Below are positions 2,999 to 21,031 of a DNA stretch of 22,908 bases, in pieces. The notes below the pieces were generated by a model. The model saw only the letters and a program-made list of their open reading frames with translations. It did no database searches and was not told where the DNA came from. This DNA is from a virus (lineage: Duplodnaviria > Heunggongvirae > Uroviricota > Caudoviricetes): IMG/VR virus record IMGVR_UViG_2875703104_000003; one strand, 5' to 3'. The position numbers and the translations under genes are program-made. Positions within the stretch are counted from its first letter, which is position 1. Each line of letters starts with the position of its first letter.

Positions 2999-3532
2999 TC
3001 ACTCTCTTTTTCCCTGAAGCATGGCAGCGTGGCAGGCATCCTCTACGCCCTTAACTGCATCTGCGCAGTAGTTATAGCGATTGCATTCCACTAACTTCTG
3101 CCTGAGATTTTCAATTGCTTGCGCGACATCAGCCTGTATTACAGGAACTGGCGGAACGGCTGTCTGCTGCTCTCGAACGTCATTAGTCGCTATCGGTTCT
3201 GCTGCCAACTGACTGGCATATTTGTTAATGGTAACGATAAGCTCTTGCTCAGCCTCATCCAGACAATCACCGATACCTCGCCTGTCGCCGTCAAAATCAT
3301 CGAAATCAGCACGAACTCTGGCAAATTTCAGGATTGCGGACAACACCTCACCAGGAATTACCGGAGAGTTGGTTGACGTTTCCGAAATTTCCCGAAAATT
3401 ATTGGTTGACGAATTCGCGTTTTCCCGAAAGTTTCCGGCATGAAGCATAGCCGCGCGGCAGGCGTTCCAGCCTCTCACCTCTGCAATAGCGGCAACAGCA
3501 TCGACCGCGTACATGCTAAGAGGGTTAGGCAT
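2999..3532 (-). CDS. Hypothetical phage protein (Ea-region)
   Basis: ORF track 2999..3607 begins at a TTG; preferred ATG at 3530-3532 (MPNPLSMYAV...), 17 nt after the upstream gene stop. Contains 'NSPVIPGEV', encoded by an 18-bp DNA string shared with the gene at 2051..2791. Confidence 0.45.
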   Translation of the reverse strand: MPNPLSMYAVDAVAAIAEVRGWNACRAAMLHAGNFRENANSSTNNFREISETSTNSPVIPGEVLSAILKFARVRADFDDFDGDRRGIGDCLDEAEQELIVTINKYASQLAAEPIATNDVREQQTAVPPVPVIQADVAQAIENLRQKLVECNRYNYCADAVKGVEDACHAAMLQGKRE

Positions 3533-3549
3533 TGGTTTTTCTTCAGGTA

Positions 3550-3804
3550 CTACTGGCACTGGCTTGGCATATATAGCGGCTGAACATACCAACCCTTTGA
3601 TAACCAACTGTCAGCAATGTTTTTACTCCTCGTTATTGCCGGAATACCTAAGCCATTGTCTGAATGCAGCCATGCCACCGGATTCTCTTCCAGCGATGCC
3701 AGAGCAATTTCATAAGCCCGGCGCTCAACATTGTCTCGCACATCCAAACTGCTGATACGCTCTTTGATTTCTTTAATCAGTTCTTTGTCGGTAAAAGTGC
3801 TCAT
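3550..3804 (-). CDS. Hypothetical phage protein
   Basis: Preferred start ATG 3802-3804 (MSTFTDKELIKEIKERISSLD...) with GGAG RBS, 1 nt after the stop of the Ea22-like gene. The ORF track extends to 3825. Confidence 0.5.
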   Translation of the reverse strand: MSTFTDKELIKEIKERISSLDVRDNVERRAYEIALASLEENPVAWLHSDNGLGIPAITRSKNIADSWLSKGWYVQPLYMPSQCQ

Positions 3805-3805
3805 A

Positions 3806-4570
3806 TCAATCTCCATTGGTATCAATGTTTACAGCCTGACAAGACTCTTTGAGCACCCAGTCAATAGCGTCTTTCCATGCCTCTGTTTCGACTGGTGGAT
3901 TTTCACGCTTAACCTGTTCATAGAAGCGCACTGCTTTAACCAGTCCTTCCGGTACTACTGGTGATGGCTGTTTAGCTTCTAAATCAGCAATTCTGTCAAC
4001 CACGGCATCGACAGCATCTGAAAAGCCGAACCAGTTGCTCCACTCCGGCTCATCCCCGGTTGCTGCAAAGTACATATCTGCTAAAGCAGATTCAGCATGG
4101 TCACGCTCGTTAATGAGTTGCTCTTCGCTTTTCTCCAGTTCAGCAATACGCTTACCCCCATCCGAGATAACACCTTCGTAATACTCACGCTGCTCGTTGA
4201 GTTTTGATTTTGTCTCCTCAAGCTCAACTCTCAGCTTCCCAACAGTAAGAGCAATATCCTCGTTCTCCTGGTCGCGGCGTTTTATGTATTGCTGGTTTCT
4301 TTCCCGTTCATCCAGCAGTGCCAGCACAGTAGCCGGATTGGCTGCGGCGATGAATTCAGCATTGGCCTGCTGTTCCATTTGGAAATCTTCATCGAAACCG
4401 CTTTCTGGATGCGCTCCTTCAATTCTGCAAATGGGAATATATCCAGCAACTTCACGATGAATTAGCGCATAATCACCATCAAATCGGCTCTCTCCATATT
4501 CGAGCGACCACTCACCACACGTTGCTTTTTCTGCCGCTTCACGCAGTGCCTGATAGTTAATTTCGCTCAC
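3806..4570 (-). CDS. ea22: Ead/Ea22-like protein
   Basis: 254 aa. N-terminus 'MSEINYQALREAAE' and the coiled-coil-like central block 'LLDERERNQQYIKRRDQENEDIALTVGKLRVELE' match lambda Ea22 from memory. GTG start overlaps the stop of the upstream gene (GTGA). Confidence 0.75.
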   Translation of the reverse strand: MSEINYQALREAAEKATCGEWSLEYGESRFDGDYALIHREVAGYIPICRIEGAHPESGFDEDFQMEQQANAEFIAAANPATVLALLDERERNQQYIKRRDQENEDIALTVGKLRVELEETKSKLNEQREYYEGVISDGGKRIAELEKSEEQLINERDHAESALADMYFAATGDEPEWSNWFGFSDAVDAVVDRIADLEAKQPSPVVPEGLVKAVRFYEQVKRENPPVETEAWKDAIDWVLKESCQAVNIDTNGD

Positions 4571-4788: not shown

Positions 4789-4886
4789 CTTTCATTAATC
4801 CCTGAATTGTTGGTTAATACGCTTGAGGGTGAATGCGAATAATAAAAAAGGAGCCTGTAGCTCCCTGATGATTTTGCTTTTCATGT

Positions 4887-5168: not shown

Positions 5169-5178
5169 TCAGTGGTTG

Positions 5179-5531: not shown

Positions 5532-6202
5532 TGCTCCCCAAATACAAAACTAATTTCAGCCAGTGCCTCGTCCATTTTTTCGATGAACTCCGGCACCATC
5601 TCGTCAAAACTCGCCATGTACTTTTCATCCCGCTCAACCACGACATAATGCAGTCCTTCACGCTTCATACGCGGGTCATAGTTGGCAAAGTACCAGGCAT
5701 CTTTTCGCGTCACCCACATGCTGTACTGCACCTGGGCCATGTAAGCCGATTTTATGGCCTCGAAACCACCGAGCCGGAACTTCATGAAATCCCGGGAGGT
5801 AAACGGGCATTTCAGCTCAAGGCCGTTGCCGTCACTGCATAAACCATCGGGAGAGCAGGCGGTGCGCATACTTTCGTCGCGATAGATGATCGGGGATTCA
5901 GTAACATTCACGCCGGAAGTAAACTCAAACAGGGCTCTGGCGTCGTTCTCGTACTGTTTTCCCCAAGCCAGCGCCTTAGCGTTAACTTCCGGAGCCACAC
6001 CGGTGCAAACCTCAGCAAGCAGGGTGTGGAAGTAGGACATTTTCATGTCAGGCCATTTCTTTCCGGAGCGGGGTTTTGCTATCACGTTGTGAACTTCTGA
6101 AGCGGTGATGACGCCGAGCCGTAATTTGTGCCATGCATCATCCCCCTGTTCGACAGCTCTCACGTCGATCCCGGTACGCTGCAGGATAATGTCCGGTGTC
6201 AT
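5522..6202 (-). CDS. exo: Lambda exonuclease (Red alpha)
   Basis: 226 aa, '[50 protein letters not shown]...', essentially colinear with lambda Exo from memory. Confidence 0.95.
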
Positions 6203-6984
6203 GCTGCCACCTTCTGCTCAGTGGCTTTCTGTTTCAGGAATCCAAGAGCTTTCACTGCTTCGGCCTGTGTCAGTTCTGACGATGCGCGAATGTCGCGGCG
6301 AAATATCTGGGAACAGAGCGGCAATAAGTCGTCATCCCATGTTTTATCCAGGGCGATCAGCAGAGTGTTAATCTCCTGCATGGTTTCATCGTTAACCGGA
6401 GTGATGTCGCGTTCCGGCTGACGTTCTGCAGTGTATGCGGTATTTTCGACAATGCGCTCGGCTTCATCCTTGTCATAGATACCAGCAAATCCGAAGGCGA
6501 GACGGGCACACTGAATCATGGCTTTATGCCGTAACATCCGTTTGGGATGCGACTGCCACGGCCCCGTGATTTCTCTGCCTTCGCGGGTTTTGAATGGTTC
6601 GCGGCGGCATTCATCCATCCACTCGGTAACGCAGATCGGATGATTGCGGTCTTTGCGGTAAATCCGGCATGTACATGATTCATTGTCCTGCTCAAAGTCC
6701 ATACCATCAAACTGCTGGTTTTCATTGATGATGCGGGACCAGCCATCAACGCCCACCACCGGAACAATGCCGTTCTGCTTATCAGGGAAGGCGTAAATTT
6801 CTTTCGTCCACGGATTAAGGCCGTACTGGTTGGCGACGATCAACAATGCGATGAACTGCGCATCGCTGGCATCACCTTTAAATGCCGTCTGGCGAAGAGT
6901 GGTGATCAGTTCCTGTGGGTCGACAGAATCCATGCCGACACGTTCAGCCAGCTTCCCTGCCAGCGTTGCGAGTGCTGTACTCAT
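6199..6984 (-). CDS. bet: Bet single-strand annealing protein (Red beta)
   Basis: 261 aa, '[66 protein letters not shown]...' matches lambda Bet. Overlaps the exo start by 4 nt. Confidence 0.95.
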
Positions 6985-6989
6985 CCGTT

Positions 6990-7286
6990 TTATACCTCTG
7001 AATCAATATCAGCCTGATGGTGAGCAATGGTTTCAACTATGTACCGGATGTGTTCTGCCATGCGCTCCTGAAACTCAACATCGTCATCAAACGCACGGGT
7101 AATGGCTTTTTTGCTGGCCCCGTGGCGTTGTAAATGATCGATGCATAGCGATTCAAACAGGTGCTGGGGCAGGCCTTTTTCCATGTCGTCTGCCAGTTCT
7201 GCCTCTTTCTCTTCACGGGCGATCTGCTGGTAGTGACGCGCCCAGCTCTGAGCCTCAAGACGATCCTGAATGTAATAAGCGTTCAT
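6990..7286 (-). CDS. gam: Gam, RecBCD inhibitor (short GamS form only)
   Basis: 98 aa, '[60 protein letters not shown]...' matches lambda GamS. The in-frame upstream region hits a TAA after 18 codons with no start codon, so there is no GamL extension. Confidence 0.9.
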
Positions 7287-7361
7287 GGCTGAACTCCTGA
7301 AAATGGCTGTGAAAATATCGCCCGCGAAATGCCAGGCTGATTAGGAAAACAGGAAAGGGGG

Positions 7362-7505
7362 TTAGTGAATGCTTTTGCTTGATCTCAGTTTCAGTATTAA
7401 TATCCATTTTTTATAAGCGTCGACGGCCTCACGAAACATCTTTTCATCGCCAATAAAAGTGGCGATAGTGAATTTAGTCTGGATAGCCATAATTGTTTGA
7501 TCCAT
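7362..7505 (-). CDS. kil: Kil host-killing protein (FtsZ inhibitor)
   Basis: Internal ATG of the 89-aa track ORF gives 47 aa '[47 protein letters not shown]', matching lambda Kil. Overlaps the cIII 3' end as in lambda. Confidence 0.8.
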
Positions 7506-7638
7506 TTTTTGGGACTCCTGGCTGATTAAGTATGTCGATAAGGCGTTTCCATCCGTCACGTAATTTACGGGTGATTCGTTCAAGTAAAGATTCGGAAGGG
7601 CAGCCAGCAACAGGCCACCCTGCAATGGCATATTGCAT
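7474..7638 (-). CDS. cIII: cIII (FtsH inhibitor, stabilises cII)
   Basis: Hand translation of the minus strand gives 54 aa '[54 protein letters not shown]', matching lambda cIII. Below the 60-aa cutoff of the ORF track. Confidence 0.8.
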   Translation of the reverse strand: MQYAIAGWPVAGCPSESLLERITRKLRDGWKRLIDILNQPGVPKNGSNNYGYPD

Positions 7639-7710
7639 GGTGTGCTCCTTATTTATACATAACGAAAAACGCCTCGAGTGAAGCGTAATTGGTATGCGGT
7701 AACGCCGCGC

Positions 7711-8079
7711 TCAGGCGGCCTTGATAGTCATATCATCTGAATCAAATATTCCTGATGTATCGATATCGGTAATTCTTATTCCTTCACTACCATCCATTGG
7801 AGGCCATCCTTCCTGACCATTTCCATCATTCCAGTCGAACTCACACACAACACCATATGCATTTAAGTCGCTTGAAATTGCTATAAGCAGAGCATGTTGC
7901 GCCAGCATGATTAATACAGCATTTAATACAGAGCCGTGTTTATTGAGTCGGTATTCAGAGTCTGACCAGAAATTATTAATCTGGTGAAGTTTTTCCTCTG
8001 TCATTACGTCATGGTCAATTTCAATTTCTATTGATGCTTTCCAGTCGTAATCAATGATGTATTTTTTGATGTTTGACAT
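7711..8079 (-). CDS. ea10: Ea10-like protein
   Basis: 122 aa, 'MSNIKKYIIDYDWKASIEIEIDHDVMTEEKLHQINNFWSDSEYRL...'; same position and size as lambda ea10 (from memory). Confidence 0.75.
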   Translation of the reverse strand: MSNIKKYIIDYDWKASIEIEIDHDVMTEEKLHQINNFWSDSEYRLNKHGSVLNAVLIMLAQHALLIAISSDLNAYGVVCEFDWNDGNGQEGWPPMDGSEGIRITDIDTSGIFDSDDMTIKAA

Positions 8080-8096
8080 CTATTCATATCCTCATA

Positions 8097-8125
8097 GATA
8101 AAAAATCGCCCTCACACTGGAGGGC
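8097..8125 (-). terminator. Candidate rho-independent terminator in the left operon (tL2-like position)
   Basis: Inverted repeat GCCCTC-ACACTG-GAGGGC at 8108..8125; on the minus strand it is followed by a T-run (plus-strand AAAAAAT at 8100-8106). Lies between ral and ea10. Confidence 0.4.
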
Positions 8126-8261
8126 AAAGAAGATTTCCAATAATCAGAACAAGTCGGCTCCTGTTTAGTTACGAGCGACATTGCTCCGTGTATTCACTCG
8201 TTGGAATGAATACACAGTGCAGTGTTTATTCTGTTATTTATGCCAAAAATAAAGGCCACTA

Positions 8262-8462
8262 TCAGGCAGCTTTGTTGTTCTGTTTACCAAGTTCTCTGGC
8301 AATCATTGCCGTCGTTCGTATTGCCCATTTATCGACATATTTCCCATCTTCCATTACAGGAAACATTTCTTCAGGCTTAACCATGCATTCCGATTGCAGC
8401 TTGCATCCATTGCATCGTTTGAATTGTCCACACCATTGATTTGTATCAATAGTCGTAGTCAT
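8262..8462 (-). CDS. ral: Ral restriction-alleviation protein
   Basis: 66 aa, 'MTTTIDTNQWCGQFKRCNGCKLQSECMVKPEEMFPVMEDGKYVDKWAIRTTAMIARELGKQNNKAA', matches lambda Ral. Confidence 0.85.
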   Translation of the reverse strand: MTTTIDTNQWCGQFKRCNGCKLQSECMVKPEEMFPVMEDGKYVDKWAIRTTAMIARELGKQNNKAA

Positions 8463-8532
8463 ACGGATAGTCCTGGTATTGTTCCATCACATCTTGAGGA
8501 TGCTCTTCGAACTCTTCAAATTCTTCTTCCAT
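8446..8532 (-). CDS. Small acidic ORF (28 aa) overlapping the ral start (lambda orf28 position)
   Basis: Hand translation: 'MEEEFEEFEEHPQDVMEQYQDYPYDYDY'. Too short for the ORF track; called on position only. Confidence 0.3.
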   Translation of the reverse strand: MEEEFEEFEEHPQDVMEQYQDYPYDYDY

Positions 8533-8675
8533 ATATCACCTTAAATAGTGGATTGCGGTAGTAAAGATTGTGCCTGTCTTTTAACCACATCAGGCTCGGT
8601 GGTTCTCGTGTACCCCTACAACGAGAAATCGGATAAACTCTATTCACCCCTACAGAGAGCAAAAGAGAAACGCCG

Positions 8676-9257
8676 ATGAACAACTCATGGTGGCAGGAAC
8701 TAATGCATTTTTTCCTGCAAGGAATGACACTTAAACAGTTGATTCATATGCTAATCATCCTGATCATATTGATTATTGTTATGCCGGTAAGCGTAAAAGA
8801 ATGGATAAACCTGCATAGTCCAGAAATCCTTCCTCATTACTGGATGTATTACATCCTGTTGTTTTGCGTTAGCTATGTGCTTAACGGCGTTGTTAATTCC
8901 GCTTATCACGCTGTGACTGAAAGAATTGAGGTATTCGCTGCTCAGAAGCGCAAATCTAAAGAAGAAAAATATGTGCAAGATTTGTTTGATTCGTTAACTC
9001 TTGGAGAAAGAGCGTATTTGGCATTCGCTGTAGCCGCTAATAACCAGCTACAAACGGAAAAGGGCGCTCATGAATCAATTTCATTGCTCAAAAAAGGACT
9101 CCTCGTTCGAAGGCCTCCTGCTGTTGGATATCCTGATACCGACCGTTTCGTTATCCCTGAAAGCTATAGACATGAGTGCTACATTAGGTTTGCCGGGAAG
9201 GCAGACAGCCTTATGGATGAACTTATCGCTCAGGATAAGCATGGCAAAAACAAGTAA
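8676..9257 (+). CDS. sieB: SieB superinfection exclusion protein
   Basis: 193 aa, 'MNNSWWQELMHFFLQGMTLKQLIHMLIILIILIIVMPVSVKEW...' with an N-terminal hydrophobic segment; matches lambda SieB. Opposite orientation to the left operon, as in lambda. Confidence 0.85.
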   Translation: MNNSWWQELMHFFLQGMTLKQLIHMLIILIILIIVMPVSVKEWINLHSPEILPHYWMYYILLFCVSYVLNGVVNSAYHAVTERIEVFAAQKRKSKEEKYVQDLFDSLTLGERAYLAFAVAANNQLQTEKGAHESISLLKKGLLVRRPPAVGYPDTDRFVIPESYRHECYIRFAGKADSLMDELIAQDKHGKNK

Positions 9258-9273
9258 TTAGCAAATGAATTTA

Positions 9274-9546
9274 TCATCTCGCCGTCAGTTGTTTTGATTT
9301 CCGGTAGCCTGCCGCGTAAAGAGCTACGTTCGGAAGACAAGTTGAACCTTCATATTTTCTGGTCAACGTTGTCAGAGTTATCACTTCTGCTCTCATTGCT
9401 GGTTTGAGCTTGCATTGCAAGACCACTCGTGAAGGGGTTGGCCTGTGTAGCTTGTCGGAGCTGATCGCCTCCTGACTTTGCAGATTTGCGCGACGAGCTC
9501 TACGGCGAGAAGCTGCGGTGCCTTTAAATTCTGTTTTTCTGGACAT
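9274..9546 (-). CDS. N: N-type transcription antiterminator (P22 gp24-like family, not lambda N)
   Basis: Preferred start ATG 9544-9546 with GGGAGG RBS, giving 91 aa 'MSRKTEFKGTAASRRRARRANLQ...'. Arginine-rich N-terminus; C-terminus 'LPNVALYAAGYRKSKQLTAR' resembles P22 gp24 'LPGVALYAAGHRKSKQITAR' (from memory). First gene downstream of the pL region. Confidence 0.7.
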   Translation of the reverse strand: MSRKTEFKGTAASRRRARRANLQSQEAISSDKLHRPTPSRVVLQCKLKPAMRAEVITLTTLTRKYEGSTCLPNVALYAAGYRKSKQLTAR

Positions 9547-9644
9547 GGATTCCTCCCGAATAAACTTTGGCGATGCAATCTCGAAGCTCCTCCTGAGACG
9601 GTTGCTTCGGCATTGCATCCCACAGCTTATGTGGTTGGGTGATC

Positions 9645-9690
9645 TGGCTTTTCAGCCACGTAGTCGAGAGTCGACGTTGTTTAAAGAGCC
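9645..9690 (-). promoter_or_regulatory. Candidate nutL (boxA-like plus boxB hairpin)
   Basis: Minus-strand reading: boxA-like GCTCTTTAA (plus 9682..9690) and a boxB-like hairpin UGGCU-GAAA-AGCCA (plus 9645..9658), between pL and N. Same architecture and spacing as the proposed nutR. Confidence 0.45.
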
Positions 9691-9699
9691 TGCCAGTCT

Positions 9700-9830
9700 G
9701 TTCCATTTGGCTTCCAGCGTCCTGCTGACGGTTAAATAGTACGATATGTACTTTACAAGATCAATACAATTTGTTGTAAGTTGGCGTGGTTTTTTATAAC
9801 GCTTTGTATTTAATAGTGTTGTTTTTTAGC
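9700..9830 (-). promoter_or_regulatory. pL / OL operator region (approximate)
   Basis: Lies between the terminator after the rex-slot cassette and nutL. Contains palindrome AGTAC-GATAT-GTACT at 9738..9752 and TTGTAT/AGTAC half-site motifs that recur in the cI-cro intergenic region. Promoter elements not resolved. Confidence 0.35.
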
Positions 9831-9950
9831 GTGGATGTATTGCCTCGGCGATGTAAGGAGAGATCAGAATTGCGTGGTTTAGTGGGTTGCATCTATTTAT
9901 TTTTCAATAAATATAATTGGTTATGTGTTTTTAGGTGGGCGAACGTGAGG

Positions 9951-9977
9951 CAAAGAAAACCCGGCGCTGAGGCCGGG
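9951..9977 (-). terminator. Rho-independent terminator ending the cI operon (tImm-like)
   Basis: Hairpin CCCGGC-GCTGAG-GCCGGG at 9960..9977, 6 nt after the stop of the 250-aa gene; on the minus strand it is followed by TTTTCTTTG. Confidence 0.5.
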
Positions 9978-9982
9978 TTGTA

Positions 9983-10735
9983 TTATGCTGCAAGTCTCTT
10001 AACCCAAGTCTCTCTTTTGGAGAATGGTAGAACTTGGCTTGATTCATGGAAGAGTAAGGAGAGTTGTTGCATTTGATCACCAATTGCTTCGCTGTCTATA
10101 ACAACAAATCTGTTGTTATACTCCTCACTTGAAGCTTTAAGATCAATTAGTTTCCCAAGCAATGAGTAAGCACTATTCCAGCTTCCTCCGTGTTTCACGC
10201 TTGATGTAAAAACGTATTTAGGTATGTCGGTTTTTATTGTTACAGGGACGGTAATTTGATGTCCACTCAAGCCATATACGTTTTCACGAAGAGAAAGTGC
10301 GTCTCTAAGCTCTGTGTGATATAGATAATCAATAACCATACTTTCAAACTTTTCAGCTTGAACTGGCTGATACCAGTCTAACGACAAAGTTGATGCGAGT
10401 ATACCAGCTCTAATTATGTTCGATGTAATCGCACCGACATCCTTTTCTGTTGCCCAAGCAATGATTTCTCCTCGAGCATTGAGTTCTGCGCCTTCTTTAA
10501 GCAGTAATTGTCGTATCTCATCAAGTCGTTTTTTGGTAAGCGAGATCCCTCTTGCCTCCATATTCATTAAGGCATCGCATCTGTCACTAACTAAATACCT
10601 ACCATTGACTTCACGGATAAAGGCACCGACATGCTCTCCATCATCACAGTAAGTGAATGGACTGATAATTCTCAAGGTCTTGCCTATTGGATGGCATTCG
10701 AAACCTAGTTGTGAGATCACTGTTGAGCACATCAT
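9983..10735 (-). CDS. Uncharacterized protein B of the rex-slot cassette (250 aa)
   Basis: ATG at 10733-10735 overlaps the stop of the upstream 185-aa gene (ATGA), so translation is probably coupled. No motif I recognise (no P-loop, no clear TM helices). Visibly AT-rich. Confidence 0.7.
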   Translation of the reverse strand: MMCSTVISQLGFECHPIGKTLRIISPFTYCDDGEHVGAFIREVNGRYLVSDRCDALMNMEARGISLTKKRLDEIRQLLLKEGAELNARGEIIAWATEKDVGAITSNIIRAGILASTLSLDWYQPVQAEKFESMVIDYLYHTELRDALSLRENVYGLSGHQITVPVTIKTDIPKYVFTSSVKHGGSWNSAYSLLGKLIDLKASSEEYNNRFVVIDSEAIGDQMQQLSLLFHESSQVLPFSKRETWVKRLAA

Positions 10736-11289
10736 ATTCCAAACCCCATTTGCCCCGACTCATCTTCAAGCGGTAAAGGTATTCTCCCAGAGTAAGTTAT
10801 GTTCAGATGTTTACAGAAGTAATTCCAATACCCTACCAGGTCATCTGGGTTTATGTCATCTTCGATTGGAAACGCTATTCTATCACTATAGTATCCAGCT
10901 TCTTCATAGTATACATGGTAGTGAGCACCGTAAATGATATCTTGGTACTTCGGATGATCGACCTTGTAACTATTCGTGTGTTTGTCAAAGTGATAGGTAT
11001 CTACCGCGAAAACCCTCTTGTTATGATAGAAAGCAATAATATTTATTTTAGGGTAAGAAATCGGGTCATCAGGTTCTGAATCCTGATCTGGTTTCCATTT
11101 CAGTTCAAACTTTAGCCCTTGTATAGGTATACAATCCTCATCCAAGGGGATGATATGGGCTTGTAGCCACATATCAGAGCGACTTGGTTTCTGTTTCCAT
11201 TTAACGCCAGAAAAGTTAACTATTTTTTTACAATAAAGTACTTTATCAACTTCTACTTGGCTTGGCTGATAATCATCTATTTTTGCCAA
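10732..11289 (-). CDS. Uncharacterized protein A of the rex-slot cassette (185 aa, start uncertain)
   Basis: Long ORF directly downstream of cI on the same strand. The ORF opens with TTG at 11287-11289, two codons after an in-frame TAA; the first in-frame ATG is at codon 40. Tyr/Asp-rich, no recognisable motif. AT-rich. Confidence 0.65.
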   Translation of the reverse strand: MAKIDDYQPSQVEVDKVLYCKKIVNFSGVKWKQKPSRSDMWLQAHIIPLDEDCIPIQGLKFELKWKPDQDSEPDDPISYPKINIIAFYHNKRVFAVDTYHFDKHTNSYKVDHPKYQDIIYGAHYHVYYEEAGYYSDRIAFPIEDDINPDDLVGYWNYFCKHLNITYSGRIPLPLEDESGQMGFGI

Positions 11290-11328
11290 TGTTTACCGCC
11301 CTGTAAATTGTAGATAAAAGTGGTTTCA

Positions 11329-11988
11329 TCACCCAAACGTCTCTTCAGGCCATTGGCTGGCGATAACTTTCCCCACAACGGAACAACTCTCATTGCATGG
11401 GATCATTGGGTATTGTGGGTTTAGTGGCTGTAGAAACACCTGACCGCTATCCCTGATCAGTTTCTTGAAGGTAAATTCATCACCACCAAGTCTGGCTATG
11501 CAGAAATCGCCGGGCTCAACAGCTTGCTCAGGGTCAACCAGAATTAACATCCCGTCAGGAAAGCTGGGTTTGGAACCTGTTGGTGCGGTCATTGAGTTAC
11601 CTTCAACCTCAAGCCAGAATGCAGAGTCACTGGCTTTTTTGGTTGTGCTTACCAATCTCTCCGCATCGCCTTTGGTAAAGGTTCTGAGTTCTGGAGAGAA
11701 CATCCCAGCCTGAACATGAGAAAAAACAGGGTACTCATATTGTTTTTTAACTGGGGCCGATGAGTATTCGCCAACAGGTGAAAATGTCCCGTCGTGGTTG
11801 AATGATATGTTATCAATACCAAGGTATTTAAACACCACACCAATATCACTAAGAGATGGATGACGAGATCCGCGCAACCAGTGTCCAATCCCACCCTGCG
11901 TCATACCTAGCTCTTCGGCTAACTTCTCTTGAGTTATGCCGAGCTCTTTCATTCTGGATCTAGCCAGTTCATACCATTTCATTTTCAT
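11329..11988 (-). CDS. cI: cI prophage repressor, hybrid (lambda-type C-terminal domain, non-lambda N-terminal DNA-binding domain)
   Basis: C-terminal part from '[28 protein letters not shown]' to '...[13 protein letters not shown]' matches lambda cI, including the Ser/Lys autocleavage region. N-terminal HTH '[38 protein letters not shown]' differs from lambda. Start is ATG 11986-11988 or 11980-11982; the track ORF extends to 12030. Confidence 0.85.
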
Positions 11989-12099
11989 GTCCTTATTATT
12001 ACGCTCTGTACTGGAACCATCCATGCACAATGTGTATTTTTACTTGTATTCGCAAAGTACATATTGTATTTTTTTATTCGTGTTTACTATGGAGGGCAT
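11989..12099. promoter_or_regulatory. OR operators with divergent pRM / pR (cI-cro intergenic region)
   Basis: About 110 bp between divergent cI and cro (about 100 bp in lambda). Three TGTATT repeats at 12033, 12045 and 12065, and the imperfect inverted repeat TACTTGTATTCGCAAAGTA at 12041..12059. Individual operators not resolved. Confidence 0.55.
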
Positions 12100-12315
12100 A
12101 TGAGCAACCTACGAAAATATCGAGAGTCACTGAATATCTCTCAAACAACACTTGCTAAGGCAGTTGGATGCACACAGGGAGCTATCGGACATTGGGAATC
12201 TGGTCGTCGCTTCCCAGACCTTAAAACATGCCGTGCTCTTGTTGCGTGCCTAAACAAGTTAGGCGCAAAAGTCAGTCTTGATGACGTGTTCCCGCCGGAA
12301 CACAAAGCCGCTTAA
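12100..12315 (+). CDS. cro: Cro-like repressor (HTH type)
   Basis: ATG at 12100, 71 aa 'MSNLRKYRESLNISQTTLAKAVGCTQGAIGHWESGRRFPDLKTCRALVACLNKLGAKVSLDDVFPPEHKAA' with a helix-turn-helix. GGAGGG lies only 3 nt upstream of the ATG, an unusually short spacer. First rightward gene opposite cI. Confidence 0.8.
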   Translation: MSNLRKYRESLNISQTTLAKAVGCTQGAIGHWESGRRFPDLKTCRALVACLNKLGAKVSLDDVFPPEHKAA

Positions 12316-12325
12316 TAAGCGGATC

Positions 12326-12371
12326 CGCTCTTTGTAACAACGGACATTCGTCCTACGTCGCTGAAAAGCGA
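12326..12371 (+). promoter_or_regulatory. Candidate nutR (boxA-like CGCTCTTT plus boxB hairpin)
   Basis: boxA-like CGCTCTTT at 12326..12333; hairpin UCGCU-GAAA-AGCGA at 12358..12371, a 5-bp stem with a GAAA loop like lambda boxB. Located between cro and cII. Confidence 0.5.
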
Positions 12372-12400
12372 GTTCCAAGATATCTGACCAACTAAGGCCA

Positions 12401-12418
12401 TATGCGTTTCCACGCATA
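12401..12418 (+). terminator. Candidate tR1-like hairpin
   Basis: Inverted repeat TATGCGT-TTCC-ACGCATA between nutR and cII; the downstream tract is only moderately T-rich, so this may be rho-dependent or not a terminator. Confidence 0.3.
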
Positions 12419-12456
12419 CCTTTCAACTAACTATTCACTATTGGAAATCTTAAGAA

Positions 12457-12753
12457 ATGGAAAGAACAAGTTACAGCAAACTATCACAGCGTGACGTTGA
12501 TCGCGCAGAAACAGATTTACTTATCAATCTGTCAGCTATTACCCAGCGCGGTCTGGCAAAGATGATTGGCTGTCATGAATCGAAGATAAGCAGAACGGAC
12601 TGGAGATTTATTGCTTCGGTCTTGTGTGCTTTCGGAATGGCATCAGACATCAGTCCGATTAGCAGGGCTTTTAAGTATGCGCTTGATGGACTCACCAATA
12701 AAAAACGCCCGGCGGCAACCGAGCGTTCTGAACAAATCCAGATGGAATTCTGA
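12457..12753 (+). CDS. cII: cII-like transcriptional activator (mosaic; lambda-identical C-terminal tail)
   Basis: 98 aa. C-terminal 'TNKKRPAATERSEQIQMEF' matches the lambda cII C-terminus; the N-terminal two thirds differ. Confidence 0.8.
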   Translation: MERTSYSKLSQRDVDRAETDLLINLSAITQRGLAKMIGCHESKISRTDWRFIASVLCAFGMASDISPISRAFKYALDGLTNKKRPAATERSEQIQMEF

Positions 12754-12785
12754 GGTCATTACTGGATCAATCCACAGGAGTCATT

Positions 12786-13685
12786 ATGACAAATACAGCA
12801 AAAATACTCAACTTCTGCAGAGGTAACTTTGCCAAACAGGAGCGTAATGTGGCAGATCTCGATGATGGTTACGCCAGACTATCAAATATGCTGCTTGAGG
12901 CTTATTCAGGCGCAGATCTGACCAAGCGACAGTTTAAAGTGCTGCTTGCCATTCTGCGTAAAACCTATGGATGGAATAAACCAATGGACAGAATCACCGA
13001 TTCTCAACTTAGCGAGATTACAAAGTTACCCGTCAAACGGTGCAATGAAGCCAAGTTAGAACTCGTCAGAATGAATATTATCAAGCAGCAAGGCGGCATG
13101 TTTGGACCAAATAAAAACATCTCAGAATGGTGTATCCCTCAAAACGAGGGAAAATCCCCTAAAACGAGGGATAAAACATCCCTCAAATTGGGGGATTGCT
13201 ATCCCTCAAAACAGGGGGACACAAAAGACACTATTACAAAAGAAAAAAGAAAAGATTATTCGTCAGAGAATTCTGGCGAATCCTCTGACCAGCCAGAAAA
13301 CGACCTTTCTGTGGTGAAACCGGATGCTGCAATTCAGAGCGGCAGCAAGTGGGGGACAGCAGAAGACCTGACCGCCGCAGAATGGATGTTTGACATGGTG
13401 AAGACCATCGCGCCATCAGCCAGAAAACCGAATTTTGCAGGGTGGGCTAACGATATCCGCCTGATGCGTGAACGTGACGGACGTAACCATCGCGACATGT
13501 GTGTACTGTTCCGCTGGGCATGCCAGGACAACTTCTGGTCCGGTAACGTGCTGAGCCCGGCCAAACTCCGCGACAAGTGGACCCAGCTCGAAATCAACCG
13601 TAACAAGCAACAGGCAGGTGTGACAGCCTGCAAACCAAAACTCGACCTGACAAACACTGACTGGATTTACGGGGTGGATTTATGA
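12786..13685 (+). CDS. O: Replication initiator O
   Basis: 299 aa, 'MTNTAKILNFCRGNFAKQERNVADLDDGYARLSNMLLEAYSGADLTKRQFKVLLAILRKTYGWNKPMDRITDSQLSEITKLPVKRCNEAKLELVRMNIIKQQ...' matches lambda O. AGGAG RBS. Confidence 0.95.
   Translation: MTNTAKILNFCRGNFAKQERNVADLDDGYARLSNMLLEAYSGADLTKRQFKVLLAILRKTYGWNKPMDRITDSQLSEITKLPVKRCNEAKLELVRMNIIKQQGGMFGPNKNISEWCIPQNEGKSPKTRDKTSLKLGDCYPSKQGDTKDTITKEKRKDYSSENSGESSDQPENDLSVVKPDAAIQSGSKWGTAEDLTAAEWMFDMVKTIAPSARKPNFAGWANDIRLMRERDGRNHRDMCVLFRWACQDNFWSGNVLSPAKLRDKWTQLEINRNKQQAGVTACKPKLDLTNTDWIYGVDL
13134..13260 (+). repeat. ori-lambda: four iterons plus AT-rich unwinding region inside O
   Basis: Four direct repeats of about 18 bp of the TCCCTCAAAACGAGGGA type at about 13135, 13155, 13179 and 13202, followed by an A-rich stretch (ACAAAAGAAAAAAGAAAAGATTATT). 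Confidence 0.85.
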
Positions 13686-14383
13686 AAAACATCGCCGCAC
13701 AGATGGTTAATTTTGACCGTGAGCAGATGCGTCGGATCGCCAACAACATGCCGGAACAGTACGACGAAAAGCCGCAGGTACAGCAGGTAGCGCAGATCAT
13801 CAACGGTGTGTTCAGCCAGTTACTGGCAACTTTCCCGGCGAGTCTGGCTAACCGTGACCAGAACGAACTGAACGAAATCCGCCGCCAGTGGGTTCTGGCT
13901 TTCCGGGAAAACGGGATCACCACAATGGAACAGGTTAACGCAGGAATGCGCGTAGCCCGTCGGCAGAATCGACCATTTCTGCCATCACCCGGGCAGTTTG
14001 TTGCATGGTGCCGGGAAGAAGCATCCGTTATCGCCGGACTGCCAAACGTCAGCGAGCTGGTTGATATGGTTTACGAGTATTGCCGGAAGCGAGGCCTGTA
14101 TCCGGATGCAGAGTCTTATCCGTGGAAATCGAACGCGCACTACTGGCTGGTTACCAACCTGTACCAGAACATGCGGGCCAATGCGCTGACTGACGCGGAA
14201 TTACGACGCAAGGCTGCCGATGAACTGACCTGTATGACAGCGCGAATTAACCGTGGTGAGACGATACCTGAACCAGTAAAACAACTTCCTGTCATGGGCG
14301 GCAGACCTCTAAATCGTGTTCAGGCGCTGGCGAAGATCGCAGAAATTAAAGCTAAGTTAGGACTGAAAGGAGCAAGTGTATGA
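13682..14383 (+). CDS. P: Replication protein P (DnaB helicase loader)
   Basis: 233 aa, 'MKNIAAQMVNFDREQMRRIANNMPEQYDEKPQVQQVAQIINGVFSQLLATFPASLANRDQNELNEIRRQW...' matches lambda P. Start overlaps the O stop. Confidence 0.95.
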   Translation: MKNIAAQMVNFDREQMRRIANNMPEQYDEKPQVQQVAQIINGVFSQLLATFPASLANRDQNELNEIRRQWVLAFRENGITTMEQVNAGMRVARRQNRPFLPSPGQFVAWCREEASVIAGLPNVSELVDMVYEYCRKRGLYPDAESYPWKSNAHYWLVTNLYQNMRANALTDAELRRKAADELTCMTARINRGETIPEPVKQLPVMGGRPLNRVQALAKIAEIKAKLGLKGASV

Positions 14384-14670
14384 CGGGCAAAGAGGCAATT
14401 ATTCATTACCTGGGGACGCATAATAGCTTCTGTGCGCCGGACGTTGCCGCGCTAACAGGCGCAACAGTAACCAGCATAAATCAGGCCGCGGCTAAAATGG
14501 CACGGGCAGGTCTTCTGGTTATCGAAGGTAAGGTCTGGCGAACGGTGTATTACCGGTTTGCTACCAAGGAAGAACGGGAAGGAAAGATGAGCACGAACCT
14601 GATTTTTAAGGAGTGTCGCCAGAGTGCCACGATGAAACGGATATTGGCGGTATATGGAGTTAAAAGATGA
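14380..14670 (+). CDS. ren: Ren (Rex-exclusion relief)
   Basis: 96 aa, 'MTGKEAIIHYLGTHNSFCAPDVAALTGATVTSINQAAAKMARAGLLVIEGKVWRTVYYRFATKEEREGKMSTNLIFKECRQSATMKRILAVYGVKR' matches lambda Ren. Confidence 0.85.
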   Translation: MTGKEAIIHYLGTHNSFCAPDVAALTGATVTSINQAAAKMARAGLLVIEGKVWRTVYYRFATKEEREGKMSTNLIFKECRQSATMKRILAVYGVKR

Positions 14671-14695
14671 CCATCTACATCACTGAGCTAATAAC

Positions 14696-14727
14696 AGGCC
14701 TGCAGGTAATCGCAGGCCTTTTTATTT
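14696..14727 (+). terminator. Rho-independent terminator (tR2-like) between ren and ninB
   Basis: 8-bp stem AGGCCTGC / GCAGGCCT with loop AGGTAATC, followed by TTTTTATTT. Confidence 0.6.
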
Positions 14728-14743
14728 GGGGGAGAGGGAAGTC

Positions 14744-15184
14744 ATGAAAAAACTAACCTTTGAAATTCGATCTCCGGCACATCAGCAAAACGCTATTCAC
14801 GCAGTACAGCAAATCCTTCCAGACCCAACCAAACCAATCGTAGTAACCATTCAGGAACGCAACCGCAGCTTAGACCAAAACAGGAAGCTATGGGCCTGCT
14901 TAGGTGACGTCTCTCGTCAGGTTGAATGGCATGGTCGCTGGCTGGATGCAGAAAGCTGGAAGTGTGTGTTTACCGCAGCATTAAAGCAGCAGGATGTTGT
15001 TCCTAACCTTGCCGGGAATGGCTTTGTGGTAATAGGCCAGTCAACCAGCAGGATGCGTGTAAGCGAATTTGCGGAGCTATTAGAGCTTATACAGGCATTC
15101 GGTACAGAGCGTGGCGTTAAGTGGTCAGACGAAGCGCGACTGGCTCTCGAATGGAAAGCGCGATGGGGAGATCGGGCTGCATGA
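14744..15184 (+). CDS. ninB: NinB recombination protein
   Basis: ATG at 14744 with GAGGGAAG RBS; 146 aa 'MKKLTFEIRSPAHQQNAIHAVQQILPDPTKPIVVTIQERNRSLDQNRKLWACLGDVSRQVEWHGRWLDAESWKCVF...' matches lambda NinB. Confidence 0.85.
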   Translation: MKKLTFEIRSPAHQQNAIHAVQQILPDPTKPIVVTIQERNRSLDQNRKLWACLGDVSRQVEWHGRWLDAESWKCVFTAALKQQDVVPNLAGNGFVVIGQSTSRMRVSEFAELLELIQAFGTERGVKWSDEARLALEWKARWGDRAA

Positions 15185-15708: not shown

Positions 15709-15881
15709 GACGACAGCGACGAAGCATCACCGACATAATCTGCGAAAACTGCAAATACCTTCCAACGAAACGCTCCAGAAATAAACGCAAGCTAATCCCA
15801 AAAGAATCTGACGTAAAAACCTTCAATTACACAGCCCACCTGTGGGATATCCGGTGGCTAAGATATCGTGCGAGGAAATGA
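15705..15881 (+). CDS. ninE: NinE
   Basis: 58 aa '[58 protein letters not shown]' matches lambda NinE. ATGA overlap with the methyltransferase stop. Confidence 0.85.
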
Positions 15882-17727: not shown

Positions 17728-17738
17728 CGTAAGTCAGA

Positions 17739-18821
17739 TTAGAACTGATAAACCAGACCTACAGCGACGATGTCGTCGGTATCAATACCAGCTGTTTTGG
17801 TAAACTTACTATCGTCAATTAAGTTGATTTTGTAATCAACAAAAGTGGACATGTTTTTATTAAAGTAGTAAGTAGCACCGACATCGACATACTTGACTAA
17901 GTCTCGGTCACCATGAACACCAAGGTCTTTACCTTTTGACTGAAGGTAAGCAACAGATGGNCGCAGACCGAAGTCAAACTGATATTGTGCTACTGCTTCA
18001 AAGTTTTGTGCTTTGTTTGCAATATGGTTATTANCAAAAACGGTCATATTCTGAGTTTCAGAATATGTGGTAGCCAGATAGATATTGTTCGCATCATATT
18101 TCAGGCCTGCAGCCCATACTTCCGCATTTTTGCCGGAGGCATTGAATTTGCTCTTACCATAGGCGACCTGACCGTCAGTGCGATCTGATTTAGCATAGGT
18201 TGCACCCACGCCGAATCCTTCATACTCATAAGTAGTGGAGAAACCGAAACCATCACCATTGGCTTCAGTTACGTCAGTGCGGTCATTTTTACCCTGATAC
18301 TGAGCAGCAAAGTTCAGGCCATCGACCAGACCAAAGAAGTCGTTGTTACGATAAGTTGCAACACCAGTAGTGCGACCAGTCATGAACACATCTGTTTGGG
18401 TCCAGGTATCACCACCGAATTCTGGCAGNACGTCAGTCCACGCACCGATGTCGTATGCTACACCGTAGTTACGGCCGTAATCGATTGAGCCGTAATCACC
18501 AAATTTCAGGCCTGCAAATGCAAGACGGGTTTTGTCTTTGGAAGAACCTTGAGATTCAGCACGGTTGCCTTTGAATTCATATTCCCACTGACCGAAACCA
18601 GTCAGTTGATCGTTGATTTGGGTTTCACCTTTGAAGCCAAGACGGGCATAAGTAGTATCACCATCATCTGCATCATTAGAGGAGAAGTAGTGCTTGGCAT
18701 TAACTTTCCCGTATAGATCCAGCTTGTTACTGTCTTTATTATAAATTTCAGCTGCCTGAGCAGACATCGCCATCAGTACTGATGCAGCTACAGCAGAAAT
18801 TGCCACTGTTAATTTTTTCAT
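17739..18821 (-). CDS. nmpC: Outer-membrane general porin, NmpC/OmpD-like (prophage cargo)
   Basis: 360 aa with signal peptide '[23 protein letters not shown]', '[24 protein letters not shown]...' and C-terminal '...VGLVYQF'. Matches NmpC from memory. Contains 3 single-N base calls (17961, 18034, 18429). Convergent with Q. Confidence 0.9.
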
Positions 18822-18837
18822 TGTACGCCCTTTTTTT

Positions 18838-18937
18838 NNNNNNNNNNNNNNNNNNNNNNNNNNNNNNNNNNNNNNNNNNNNNNNNNNNNNNNNNNNNNNN
18901 NNNNNNNNNNNNNNNNNNNNNNNNNNNNNNNNNNNNN
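18838..18937. other. Scaffold gap (100 N) with no flanking duplication
   Basis: Run of exactly 100 N. Left flank is 16 nt upstream of the porin start; right flank is the interior of a tail-fiber gene. Unknown length of sequence is missing. Confidence 0.95.
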
Positions 18938-21031
18938 GGCGCCATGACGGAAGATGATGTCATGCCGGAGGCACTGCGCCGTTTTGAGCTGATGGTGAAT
19001 GAAGTGGCACGTCATGCCGGAGCATCATCACAGAGCGCAGCGGCAGCAAAGAAATCCGAAACTGCTGCGGCATCATCGAAGAACGCGGCGAAAACCTCAG
19101 AAACGAATGCAGCTAACAGCGCACAGGCGGCAGCGGCCTCGCAGACTGCATCGGCAAACTCCGCGACAGCAGCCAAAAAATCAGAAACCAGCGCGAAAAA
19201 CAGCGAGACAGCCACAAAGGCCAGCGAAAAAAACGCAAAATCCAGCCAGACGGCAGCGAAAACCAGTGAGACGAATGCCAAAGACAGTGAAGCCAACGCA
19301 AAGGTGAGCGAAACAGCGGCGGCGAACTCGGCGAAAGCATCGGCAGCAAGCCAGACGGCAGCAAAAGCAAGTGAAGATGCTGCCAGAGAATACGCAAACC
19401 AGACAGCAGAGCCGTACAGATATGTTTTACAGCCGCTGCCGGATGTGTGGATACCCTTTAATGATTCGCTGGATATGATTACGGGCTATTCTCCGGGTTA
19501 TAAAAAAGTGAAGATTGGTGATAATGTGGTTCAGGTTGCCAGTGATAAACAGGTTAATTTCAGTCGCGCATCAACGGCAACATATATCAACAAATCTGGC
19601 GAACTGAAAACGGCGGAAATTAATGAGCCACGATTTGAGTGTGATGGCCTGCTTATTGAGGGGCAAAGAACGAACTTCTTCCCGAACAGTACAGACCCTT
19701 CGAAGTGGAATAAGTCAACTTCACTGGACGTTACAGAAACAGGCACAGATAGTTTCGGGTTTAATTATGGCCGGTTTGTCGTACAGGATTCGATTGTTGG
19801 TACAAGTAAAGCGCATACCATTATCGGACTGTATTCGAGTACCGGAGGGGTTGATACTTCAGGGGACGAAAAGCATGTAACTATATCCTGTCGGGTAAAA
19901 AGTGAAGTTGATAATATCGCCGTTCGTATTTTATTTGAACATTATGATGGGGAGGTAAGGACATCAATAGGAGCAGCAAACCTGAACCTTACCACCCGCA
20001 TAATTAGCAAGACAGGTCAGACAAGCCGTGTTACAGCAAGGTCTGTTAAGGATGATGCAACTGGCTGGATATTTTTTGAGGCTACATTAAAAGCAGATAC
20101 AACAGAAAATACGGTTGGTGGTTTTGTCCAGTATTCTCCGGATACAGGNNNNNNNNNNNNNNNNNNNNNGACAAGCCGTGTTACAGCAAGGTCTGTTAAG
20201 GATGATGCAACTGGCTGGATATTTTTTGAGGCTACATTAAAAGCAGATACAACAGAAAATACGGTTGGTGGTTTTGTCCAGTATTCTCCGGATACAGGGC
20301 AGATGGTTACATCAGGGGATTATCTCGATGTAACCACTCCACAGATTGAGGCTGGTACAGGCGCATCATCTTTTATTGTTACGGGGACGGCACCGGCAAC
20401 GCGGGCAAGCGATATGGTGACAGTCCCAATCAAGAATAACCTTTATAATCTTCCTTTTACGGTTCTTTGTGAGGTACATAAGAACTGGTATAAAACGCCA
20501 AATGTAGCGCCGCGTGTTTTTGATACCGGCGGTCATCAAACCGGAGCGGGGATCGTAATGGGGTTTGGTTCATCAGGTGGGTACGACGGTTTTCCGTATT
20601 GCGATATAGGTGGTTCAGACCGACGAATAAATGAAAATGCCGGGCTGGAAAAAATGCTTATTGGTATGCGGGTAAAGTCCGAACGGTCCACATGTGTAGT
20701 CAGTAACGGTAAGTTAAGCAGCGAAACTAAAACCAAATGGGNNNNNNNNNNNNNNNNNNNNNGTTCAGACCGACGAATAAATGAAAATGCCGGGCTGGAA
20801 AAAATGCTTATTGGTATGCGGGTAAAGTCCGAACGGTCCACATGTGTAGTCAGTAACGGTAAGTTAAGCAGCGAAACTAAAACCAAATGGGAATATATCC
20901 GGAGTACAGCAACCATTCGCATTGGTGGACAAACTACAGCAGGATTACGCCATTTATTTGGGCATGTGAGGAATTTTCGTCTCTGGCATAAAGAGCTAAC
21001 AGATGCGCAGCTTGGGGAGGTTGTGGAGTGA
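18938..21031 (+). CDS. stf: Side tail fiber protein (Stf-like), 5'-truncated by the scaffold gap; contains two assembly duplications
   Basis: 'AMTEDDVMPEALRRFELMVNEVARHA' parallels lambda Stf 'AMTEDDARPEVLRRLELMVEEVARNA' (about residue 100 of Stf), followed by the typical K/S/E/T/A-rich repeats (AAKKSETAAASSKNAAKTSETNA...). The C-terminal half differs from lambda Stf. Contains the N runs 20149..20169 and 20742..20762 with flanking duplications. Confidence 0.8.
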   Translation, partial: GAMTEDDVMPEALRRFELMVNEVARHAGASSQSAAAAKKSETAAASSKNAAKTSETNAANSAQAAAASQTASANSATAAKKSETSAKNSETATKASEKNAKSSQTAAKTSETNAKDSEANAKVSETAAANSAKASAASQTAAKASEDAAREYANQTAEPYRYVLQPLPDVWIPFNDSLDMITGYSPGYKKVKIGDNVVQVASDKQVNFSRASTATYINKSGELKTAEINEPRFECDGLLIEGQRTNFFPNSTDPSKWNKSTSLDVTETGTDSFGFNYGRFVVQDSIVGTSKAHTIIGLYSSTGGVDTSGDEKHVTISCRVKSEVDNIAVRILFEHYDGEVRTSIGAANLNLTTRIISKTGQTSRVTARSVKDDATGWIFFEATLKADTTENTVGGFVQYSPDTXXXXXXXXTSRVTARSVKDDATGWIFFEATLKADTTENTVGGFVQYSPDTGQMVTSGDYLDVTTPQIEAGTGASSFIVTGTAPATRASDMVTVPIKNNLYNLPFTVLCEVHKNWYKTPNVAPRVFDTGGHQTGAGIVMGFGSSGGYDGFPYCDIGGSDRRINENAGLEKMLIGMRVKSERSTCVVSNGKLSSETKTKWXXXXXXXXSDRRINENAGLEKMLIGMRVKSERSTCVVSNGKLSSETKTKWEYIRSTATIRIGGQTTAGLRHLFGHVRNFRLWHKELTDAQLGEVVE
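20149..20169. other. Assembly spacer (21 N) flanked by a duplicated block
   Basis: About 20020..20148 is repeated exactly at 20170..20298. Confidence 0.9.
20742..20762. other. Assembly spacer (21 N) flanked by a duplicated block
   Basis: The sequence before the N run (ending ...AACCAAATGGG) recurs after it (GTTCAGACCGACG...AACCAAATGGG). Confidence 0.9.

Follow-up and report, generated by a model that had tools for sequence, protein, structure and literature searches.

In phage lambda, the immunity region is arranged as pRM-cI-rexA-rexB-tImm, and rexAB is a known exclusion system. What is carried at this place when rexA and rexB are absent, and what could it do for the lysogen? The question is raised by a stretch of 22,908 nucleotides (nt) from a virus (Caudoviricetes; IMG/VR record IMGVR_UViG_2875703104_000003). 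The whole stretch, at its full length, is called the window here. Two genes, designated A and B, lie directly downstream of its cI gene. A-B takes the place of rexAB as an exact cassette, and it is considered a credible candidate for a cytosolic defense system, well supported and as yet unproven. Over bases 1–17234, the window matches Escherichia phage PhiR57_1 (PV340572.1) with 100% identity and unchanged coordinates.

Replacement of rexAB between cI and tImm

The interval and its borders contain the following features.
9858..9979: left (downstream) conserved flank of the slot, 90% identical to lambda and 87% identical to HK542 (BLASTN)
9950..9979, minus strand: intrinsic terminator at the lambda tImm position, closing the cI-A-B unit (terminator scan and free energy)
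9983..10735, minus strand: gene B, 250 amino acids (aa), ATG start
10732..11289, minus strand: gene A, 185 aa, TTG start
11290..11328, minus strand: spacer of 39 nt between cI and A, with a weak Shine-Dalgarno-like GGGCGG ahead of the TTG start
11328..11739: right (upstream) conserved flank, consisting of the 3' part of cI; identity is 93% to lambda and 95% to HK542
11329..12030, minus strand: cI-type repressor gene, matching Pfam Peptidase_S24 (1.3e-28) and HTH_3 (2.1e-10)

Two co-oriented minus-strand open reading frames (ORFs) directly after cI had been described in a first-pass annotation, and their coordinates and lengths were confirmed. The C-terminal half of cI is lambda-like, corresponding to the right flank; the gene is annotated as 11329..12024 in PV340572.1.

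On the left, the homology stops at 9979, at the terminator stem and 3 nt from the stop codon of B. On the right, it starts at 11328/11326, at the stop codon of cI. The 1,348 bp between the flanks have no counterpart in lambda, where rexB-rexA fill that interval (BLASTN). In HK542, the same two junctions surround an unrelated pair of overlapping genes. A search with the joined flanks revealed at least four different cargos: A-B, rexAB (lambda and SfI), the overlapping pair of HK542/HK244 (144 and 206 aa), and one 'GspM-containing' gene in mEp332. The HK542/HK244 pair has no Pfam family and no PADLOC match. The record PV340541.1 is also among the sequences behind this observation.

The end of the lambda homology at 9979, its resumption at 11328 and the other cargos of HK542 and mEp332 together indicate that A-B is a precise cassette replacement of rexAB in a swap site bounded by recombination. 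The earlier reading of the locus as a copy of the lambda layout is thereby supported. The dissimilarity of A and B to RexA and RexB, also claimed there, agrees with BLASTP, which finds no similarity (for RexA, none at E <= 10 with A and none of note with B). The composition of the cassette differs from that of its surroundings: the GC content of A and B is 39.6% (34–36% at third codon positions), versus 46.3% for cI, 49.5% for N and 45.7% for the whole window. The block is thus AT-richer than its flanks, as had been noted, by a modest difference.

Transcript layout and start codons

The cI gene is presumed to be the first gene of the lysogenic transcript. The terminator scan gave no terminator-like site between cI and A. 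Promoter-like sites are found in the spacer and inside A and B, no more commonly than in shuffled sequences, so that neither an own promoter for A-B nor an internal pLit-like promoter in A or B is accepted. Rfam and tRNA scans of the A-B block detected no RNA element.

Downstream of B, the sequence AACCCGGC-CTCAGC-GCCGGGTT followed by TTCTTTG (9979..9950) forms an 8-bp stem, in which six pairs are G-C, with a T-run, and has a free energy of -17 kcal/mol (z = -3.4 versus shuffled sequences). It is homologous to the lambda sequence overlapping the 3' end of rexB. A GC hairpin with a T-run 6 nt after B had been reported from inspection; the strength of the terminator upholds the hairpin, and the distance is 3 nt, being 6 nt only if the GC core alone is counted. 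Beyond the terminator are N (9274..9546) and, on the opposite strand, sieB.

The junction between the two genes, ggaatATGAtg, confirms the reported overlap of the A stop codon TGA with the B start codon ATG. A second ATG follows 3 nt further, at which B begins in PV340572.1; with either start, the overlap is of the coupling type. The possibility had been raised that A, which starts with TTG, lacks a functional start. This can be set aside: 22 of 22 close homologs begin with Met-Ala, nearly all with Met-Ala-Lys, and the position of the start codon is kept in nine other lineages, being GTG in six, TTG in Aeromonas, and ATG in Thorsellia and a Pseudomonas phage.

Five lineages have a three-codon mini-ORF (ATG-GAx-xxx-stop) ending 2–5 nt before the GTG of A, and this suggests that A is controlled by termination-reinitiation in those lineages. 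The window does not have it. Instead, an 18-codon ORF is present at 11273–11329. The A of its ATG is also the last base of the cI stop codon (TGATG), and the ORF crosses the TTG start of A in another frame.

Distribution and conservation of the gene pair

The 1.5-kb block around A-B is identical in phages ev017, ev207 and PhiR63_2, and 99.3% identical in one Shiga toxin (Stx) 1a phage. The identical block is also present in prophages of Escherichia coli Nissle 1917, ATCC 25922, ATCC 11775 and many extraintestinal pathogenic (ExPEC) and avian pathogenic (APEC) strains. At a coverage of at least 80%, it is seen in 239 of 5,426 complete E. coli genomes. In every record, A and B are annotated as 'hypothetical protein' or 'DUF1828 domain-containing protein'.

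Dozens of full-length homologs were found for each ORF. Close homologs form 47 clusters for B and 26 for A, and are limited to Enterobacterales, Aeromonas and Thorsellia. The family of A is rare: when 1.84 billion representative proteins were searched exhaustively with a profile, only 32 relatives of A were obtained at E <= 0.001. The nonsynonymous divergence (pN) of A and B is 0.09–0.26, while the synonymous divergence (pS) is saturated at 0.62–0.93. Judged by this, A and B are real genes under strong purifying selection.

The order is conserved as well. A is directly upstream of B in seven of seven species-representative genomes, which are all the loci long enough to judge, and the nearest upstream gene on the same strand is a repressor gene in every species-representative locus but one. 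With tblastn, cI-like repressors were found upstream of the pair in Yersinia, two species of Providencia and Pantoea, and no repressor match was found upstream of A-B at the Izhakiella locus. Inspection of ORFs placed a repressor directly before A in Xenorhabdus, and in Thorsellia a 114-aa hydrophobic ORF separates the repressor from A. An Aeromonas caviae prophage has an S24 repressor followed directly by A and B, and a Salmonella prophage has a short CI-type repressor without the S24 domain, then A and B. The D3-like Pseudomonas phage phPA-G (PP083311.1) shows the order CI, a 216-aa gene, an A-like ORF and a B-like gene, the last two with the same 4-nt overlap. Thus, prophages with the A-B pair occur in Salmonella, Yersinia, Providencia, Xenorhabdus, Pantoea, Thorsellia, Aeromonas and Pseudomonas. 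From these arrangements it can be inferred that, in temperate phages, A-B is consistently placed for transcription with the repressor.

Two details of phPA-G may be added. In PP083311.1 (region 2680–4756), no annotation covers the A-like ORF (about 3483..4004), which shares 4 nt with the start of the B-like gene annotated as CDS0029. The gene that separates this pair from CI (216 aa) weakly matches the PADLOC candidate PDC-S48 (3e-6).

Outside these prophages, distant relatives of A (~25% identity) were found in 25 metagenomic loci. In 20 of them, the next gene downstream is of the B family (~253 aa); the remaining five contigs break off before this could be seen. Among the genes around the distant pairs are those for N6/N4 DNA methyltransferases (in two different arrangements) and an AAA_25 replication-type ATPase, besides a helix-turn-helix (HTH) gene and an AAA/STAND-like gene. 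Their setting, as far as gene neighborhoods indicate, is a restriction-modification (RM) or mobile-element context and not a prophage immunity region. One metagenomic pair is directly 3' of a gene of the DRAT (dinitrogenase reductase ADP-ribosyltransferase) family (Pfam 2.8e-96), which may be a chance neighbor or a linked toxin-like enzyme. The constant association of the two genes indicates that A-B is one conserved functional unit down to about 25–30% identity.

Relationship to PDC-M24

The pair had been called uncharacterized. This holds in that no characterized system was matched, although a relative is already catalogued in PADLOC as the candidate PDC-M24. B matches PDC-M24B over nearly its entire length: PDLC04540 is hit at 4.7e-10, with residues 2–249 aligned to positions 4–254 of the 256 positions of the profile, and PDLC04539 at 1.5e-7.

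For A, the corresponding relationship is more tentative. In a divergent alignment of 23 sequences (A of the window and 22 distant relatives), six match PDC-M24A (best 1.5e-6), and seven match DUF6978 at E < 0.01 (best 2e-6). Several other relatives have no PDC-M24A match, and all of their B partners match PDC-M24B.

PDC-M24 is the cassette CAS_00098, FAM_00129>>FAM_00065, one of 145 PDC candidates that were predicted because homologs lie inside BREX, DISARM or type I RM loci (Payne et al., bioRxiv 10.1101/2024.01.29.577857).

Features of proteins A and B

Protein A is acidic (pI 5.3), is predicted to be soluble and matches phrog_2017. Its AlphaFold model has a predicted local distance difference test score (pLDDT) of 85.5 and a predicted template modeling score (pTM) of 0.84. 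Across the divergent family, W31, R92, N106, H123, H125, F158 and P173 are invariant, and K22, D97, H104, G121 and Q180 are nearly so. Several of these residues compose the pattern D..HxN....GxHxH on neighboring predicted strands, and the Asp/His/Asn/His/His set could be a candidate metal-binding or catalytic site. Two known motifs were compared with this pattern and rejected. An HNH or His-Me finger is not consistent with the alignment and the model, in which the spacing of His-x-Asn does not fit and the second hairpin strand carries both His residues. The HxHxH of HIT proteins is not consistent with the alignment either, as the third His is absent.

The C-terminal tail of A (about residues 171–185) is conserved, including a nearly invariant Gly-Gln, and its modeling confidence is low, the last two blocks of 10 residues having pLDDT of 68 and 43. 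It can be speculated that this disordered tail is a docking motif.

No PDB sequence was matched significantly in profile searches with A and B. A broad profile of A matched a designed Kelch repeat protein (8pjr) at 9.9e-11, and this match was rejected; six hits to identical repeats, all insignificant when taken singly (i-Evalue 52–270), add up to the score.

Protein B is also acidic and predicted to be soluble, and it matches phrog_1960. Its residues 26–110 match Pfam DUF1828 with 33.5 bits (gathering cut-off 22). The AlphaFold model (pLDDT 84.4) has two domains. The N-terminal DUF1828 domain (about 1–120) is predicted to adopt a fold like YbjN and type III secretion chaperones, and its best fold matches are YbjN-family and DUF2170 proteins, which are described as regulators. 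The C-terminal domain (about 125–250) shows a predicted alpha-beta-beta-beta-alpha-beta order, which fits the restriction-endonuclease-like (PD-(D/E)xK) fold. The statement in the first-pass annotation that neither protein has a recognizable motif thus still applies to A, which lacks a fold match in the PDB, and no longer to B.

In the C-terminal domain of B, S157-G158-H159, W186, G194, D198 and R209 are invariant throughout the family, and D/E is conserved at 214. The invariant S157-G158-H159 precedes strand 2. Strand 3 has no conserved acidic-x-Lys, and K181 and K200 vary. The domain lacks the PD-(D/E)xK residues and therefore may be non-catalytic. A CARF-like assignment, prompted by matches to Can2, VC1899 and Cdn1, was rejected; the three-strand meander without intervening helices is that of PD-(D/E)xK and not of a Rossmann fold.

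Possible function of the A-B cassette

Defense is considered most likely because A-B, placed on the same strand as cI and bounded by cI and a strong terminator, is an exact replacement of rexAB, because this position is kept across at least three kinds of repressor and at least six genera, and because distant relatives are associated with restriction-type loci. An anti-phage defense role is, on these grounds, somewhat probable. A defense or exclusion module had been proposed in the first-pass annotation. The defense part gains contextual support from the repressor-linked position and the relation to PDC-M24, whereas exclusion of the membrane type has become unlikely. Both proteins are soluble, and therefore action after DNA entry is expected rather than exclusion at the membrane.

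Several points weigh against a defense role. The match of A to PDC-M24A (PDLC04536) is weak (4.8e-4, 18.1 bits) and covers only the C-terminal third (residues 104–163). Its match to Pfam DUF6978 reaches 22.0 bits, below the gathering cut-off of 29.6, and is likewise confined to residues 104–164. The model of A has no fold match in the PDB and shows no recognizable catalytic fold, and the canonical D...(D/E)xK motif is absent from the family alignment of the C-terminal domain of B. Co-transcription of A-B with cI and expression in the lysogen are inferred from gene layout only. The PDC systems are called untested by the authors who predicted them (Payne et al., bioRxiv 10.1101/2024.01.29.577857), and one candidate, M63, showed no activity on testing in its native host. 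In the searched literature, DUF1828, DUF6978, PDC-M24 and the A and B proteins were not found in a defense context, nor did any experiment on the two genes turn up there.

If A-B is a defense system, the following mechanism could be considered. The self-contained cassette, swapped into the rexAB slot, would be made at a low level on the repressor transcript in the lysogen. A and B would form a cytosolic complex, in which the chaperone-like N-terminal domain of B probably holds the disordered C-terminal tail of A. A superinfecting phage, through a protein, its DNA or a replication intermediate, might disturb this complex or be recognized by it. A catalytic site would then be released, which may be the His cluster of A as a metal-dependent hydrolase, the non-canonical nuclease-like domain of B, or both. 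The freed site would attack nucleic acid and stop the infection once phage DNA has entered, whether directly or through abortive infection. The weak start of A and the coupled start of B fit a low dose, in fixed ratio, of a potentially harmful complex. Such a mechanism of a sensor with a nucleic acid effector is tentative, and in this specific form it is unlikely. The combined statement, that A-B is a defense cassette working in the proposed way, falls slightly short of an even chance.

Another reading is that A-B has a non-defense function in lysogenic conversion or prophage regulation (host physiology, DNA metabolism, induction or lysis-lysogeny) and that the slot merely tolerates cargo. The other uncharacterized cargos of the slot, the HK542 pair and the GspM-domain gene of mEp332, would agree with this, as would the regulators among the best fold matches of the N-terminal domain of B. 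However, relatives occur beside methyltransferases and outside prophages, and a related family inside RM, BREX or DISARM loci would be unexplained by phage-specific regulation. A-B is linked to several unrelated types of repressor, and a function specific to one partner is therefore disfavored. This reading is regarded as rather unlikely.

A toxin-antitoxin-like addiction module, stabilizing the prophage or mobile element, is a further step less likely. Two small, translationally coupled genes with a weak start on the first, always found together, co-diverging and present on prophages and other mobile elements, would be expected of such a module, and the chaperone-like domain of B could neutralize a toxin. 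Yet Pfam, NCBIfam and PADLOC gave no toxin or antitoxin family and no HTH, RHH (ribbon-helix-helix) or AbrB domain in A or B, so a DNA-binding or autoregulatory domain is missing by Pfam, and promoter-like sites are not above chance. Both proteins are larger than typical type II components. Besides, addiction and defense roles are compatible with each other.

It is very improbable that A-B is a counter-defense pair, acting against restriction or immunity for the benefit of the phage and not of the lysogen. The lambdoid early-left anti-restriction genes ral and gam are both in the window, and relatives of A-B adjoin methyltransferases. Chromosomal relatives are, however, embedded in host defense loci. 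In addition, A-B is on the repressor transcript, which is terminated before pL/N, and therefore it would be made in the lysogen and not in early lytic growth.

Membrane exclusion like that of RexAB or SieB, by depolarization or a block of DNA entry, shares the rexA-rexB slot and the two-gene layout, but is hardly conceivable for two globular, soluble protein models without similarity to RexA or RexB, in which the absence of membrane helices noted earlier is corroborated by a maximum 19-residue hydropathy of 0.45 (A) and 1.19 (B) versus 2.39 for RexB, and by no windows above 1.6 versus 51 in RexB.

Implications

Returning to defense, if A-B has this role, it would be a new two-protein immune module, a computational candidate family of PADLOC would become a validated one, and the cI-tImm interval of lambdoid phages would be shown as a swap site for immunity cargo. 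The lack of structural precedent for A in the PDB would then make a new biochemical activity likely, and the architecture of B, a chaperone-like domain with a degenerate nuclease, is unusual. If A-B does not defend, its strong conservation and its link to the repressor would still call for an explanation of what the pair does in lysogeny. Any claim of complete novelty must be tempered, as a distant relative is catalogued, one domain of B is a named DUF, and a candidate in the rex slot would be expected by a specialist.

A more ambitious proposal can be formulated. A-B and its relatives including PDC-M24 might represent a mechanistically new class of cytosolic anti-phage systems, in which A is the effector, a new metal-dependent enzyme, and B holds A in check and switches it on. 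The module would have been captured repeatedly by temperate phages of Escherichia (including the Nissle 1917 prophage), Salmonella, Aeromonas and Pseudomonas as cargo downstream of the repressor, expressed in the lysogen. This proposal is doubtful as a whole.

The cassette is common in E. coli, and therefore it could influence which hosts therapeutic phages can infect. Part of the phage resistance of Nissle 1917 might also be due to the cassette; how this strain resists lambda and Stx phages has been explained only in part (PMC5987069). EcN_1291 and EcN_1292 of Nissle prophage 3, which appear merely as 'hypothetical protein' in the supplementary table of that study, are probably B and A, respectively. 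The study credits the 'phage repressor' gene pr (EcN_1294) with shielding K-12 from lambda and Stx phages, and lists it between the 'cI repressor protein' (EcN_1293) and the O replication gene (EcN_1295). Since pr lies between cI and O, it may be a cro- or cII-like gene and not cI.

Other features of the window

To the right of 17234, the window departs from PV340572.1 and contains 12 runs of N. The region 17235–22908 has the appearance of a draft scaffold whose pieces were joined in the wrong order; the A-B finding is unaffected. One run of N is flanked by a 129-bp duplication (17256–18837 of the window corresponds to 17106–18687 of PV340572.1). Beyond the run of 100 N at 18838–18937, the sequence has no match to the first 22.9 kb of PV340572.1. 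A tail-fiber-like ORF (18782..21031, plus strand) is located in this draft right end.

After the Q gene, a complete ORF of 360 aa with three ambiguous bases occupies 17739–18821 on the minus strand. The matching stretch of PV340572.1, between Q and the lysis genes, is labeled as porin OmpD; the coordinates of that coding sequence do not fit the window because of the 129-bp duplication. The ORF presumably resembles the lysogenic-conversion porin Lc of phage PA-2.

The sole Rfam match in the window is Lambda_thermo, the cIII thermoregulator, at 7593–7651 on the minus strand (88.5 bits), an ordinary lambda feature.

Comparison with known systems

RexAB is the system whose place A-B occupies. The slot and the junctions (cI stop codon and tImm hairpin) are the same, two co-oriented genes are present in both, and expression in the lysogen is presumed. 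The proteins are different: RexB crosses the membrane several times, whereas A and B are soluble and their predicted folds are unrelated to anything reported for Rex. Without a membrane helix in A or B, a mechanism of membrane depolarization is therefore not expected.

The HK542/HK244 pair and the mEp332 gene share the flanks and the orientation with A-B, and the HK542 cargo also consists of two overlapping genes. Homology of A-B to the HK542/HK244 pair was considered and rejected, as the sequences are unrelated (BLASTP E 0.39 and 0.55).

The gene bstA is reportedly just downstream of the repressor gene of the Salmonella prophage BTP1, as the same kind of repressor-linked cargo, and BstA is said to have its own anti-BstA DNA element. 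Owen et al. (2021, PMC8585504) present BstA as a prophage-encoded defense active in the lysogen, which is the likeness to A-B. Unlike the A-B pair, BstA consists of one protein only, and in PADLOC, A and B matched no models other than those of PDC-M24.

B differs from PD-(D/E)xK nucleases (the nuclease domain of Can2/Card1, PspGI, NgoMIV, Cfr10I and MunI) in that the canonical Asp of strand 2 and (D/E)xK of strand 3 are absent, and from Can2/Card1 also in having no CARF domain. Its N-terminal domain has no sequence similarity to YbjN, DUF2170 proteins or the chaperones and related proteins SicP, CesT, SycN and AmyR. Unlike in SicP, CesT, SycN and AmyR, this domain is fused to a nuclease-like domain, and no secretion system is involved.

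A-B also resembles PDC-M24, which is likewise a two-gene cassette with A first and B following on the same strand, and whose B is matched over its full length. The scores of A-B are far below the within-family level. A is longer (185 aa versus profiles of ~133–150 positions), with its first ~100 residues unmatched. The location also differs, as A-B is in a prophage immunity region and PDC-M24 is embedded in RM, BREX or DISARM loci. On these profile matches, A-B is best described as a putative divergent sister clade of the candidate family PDC-M24, outside any characterized system.

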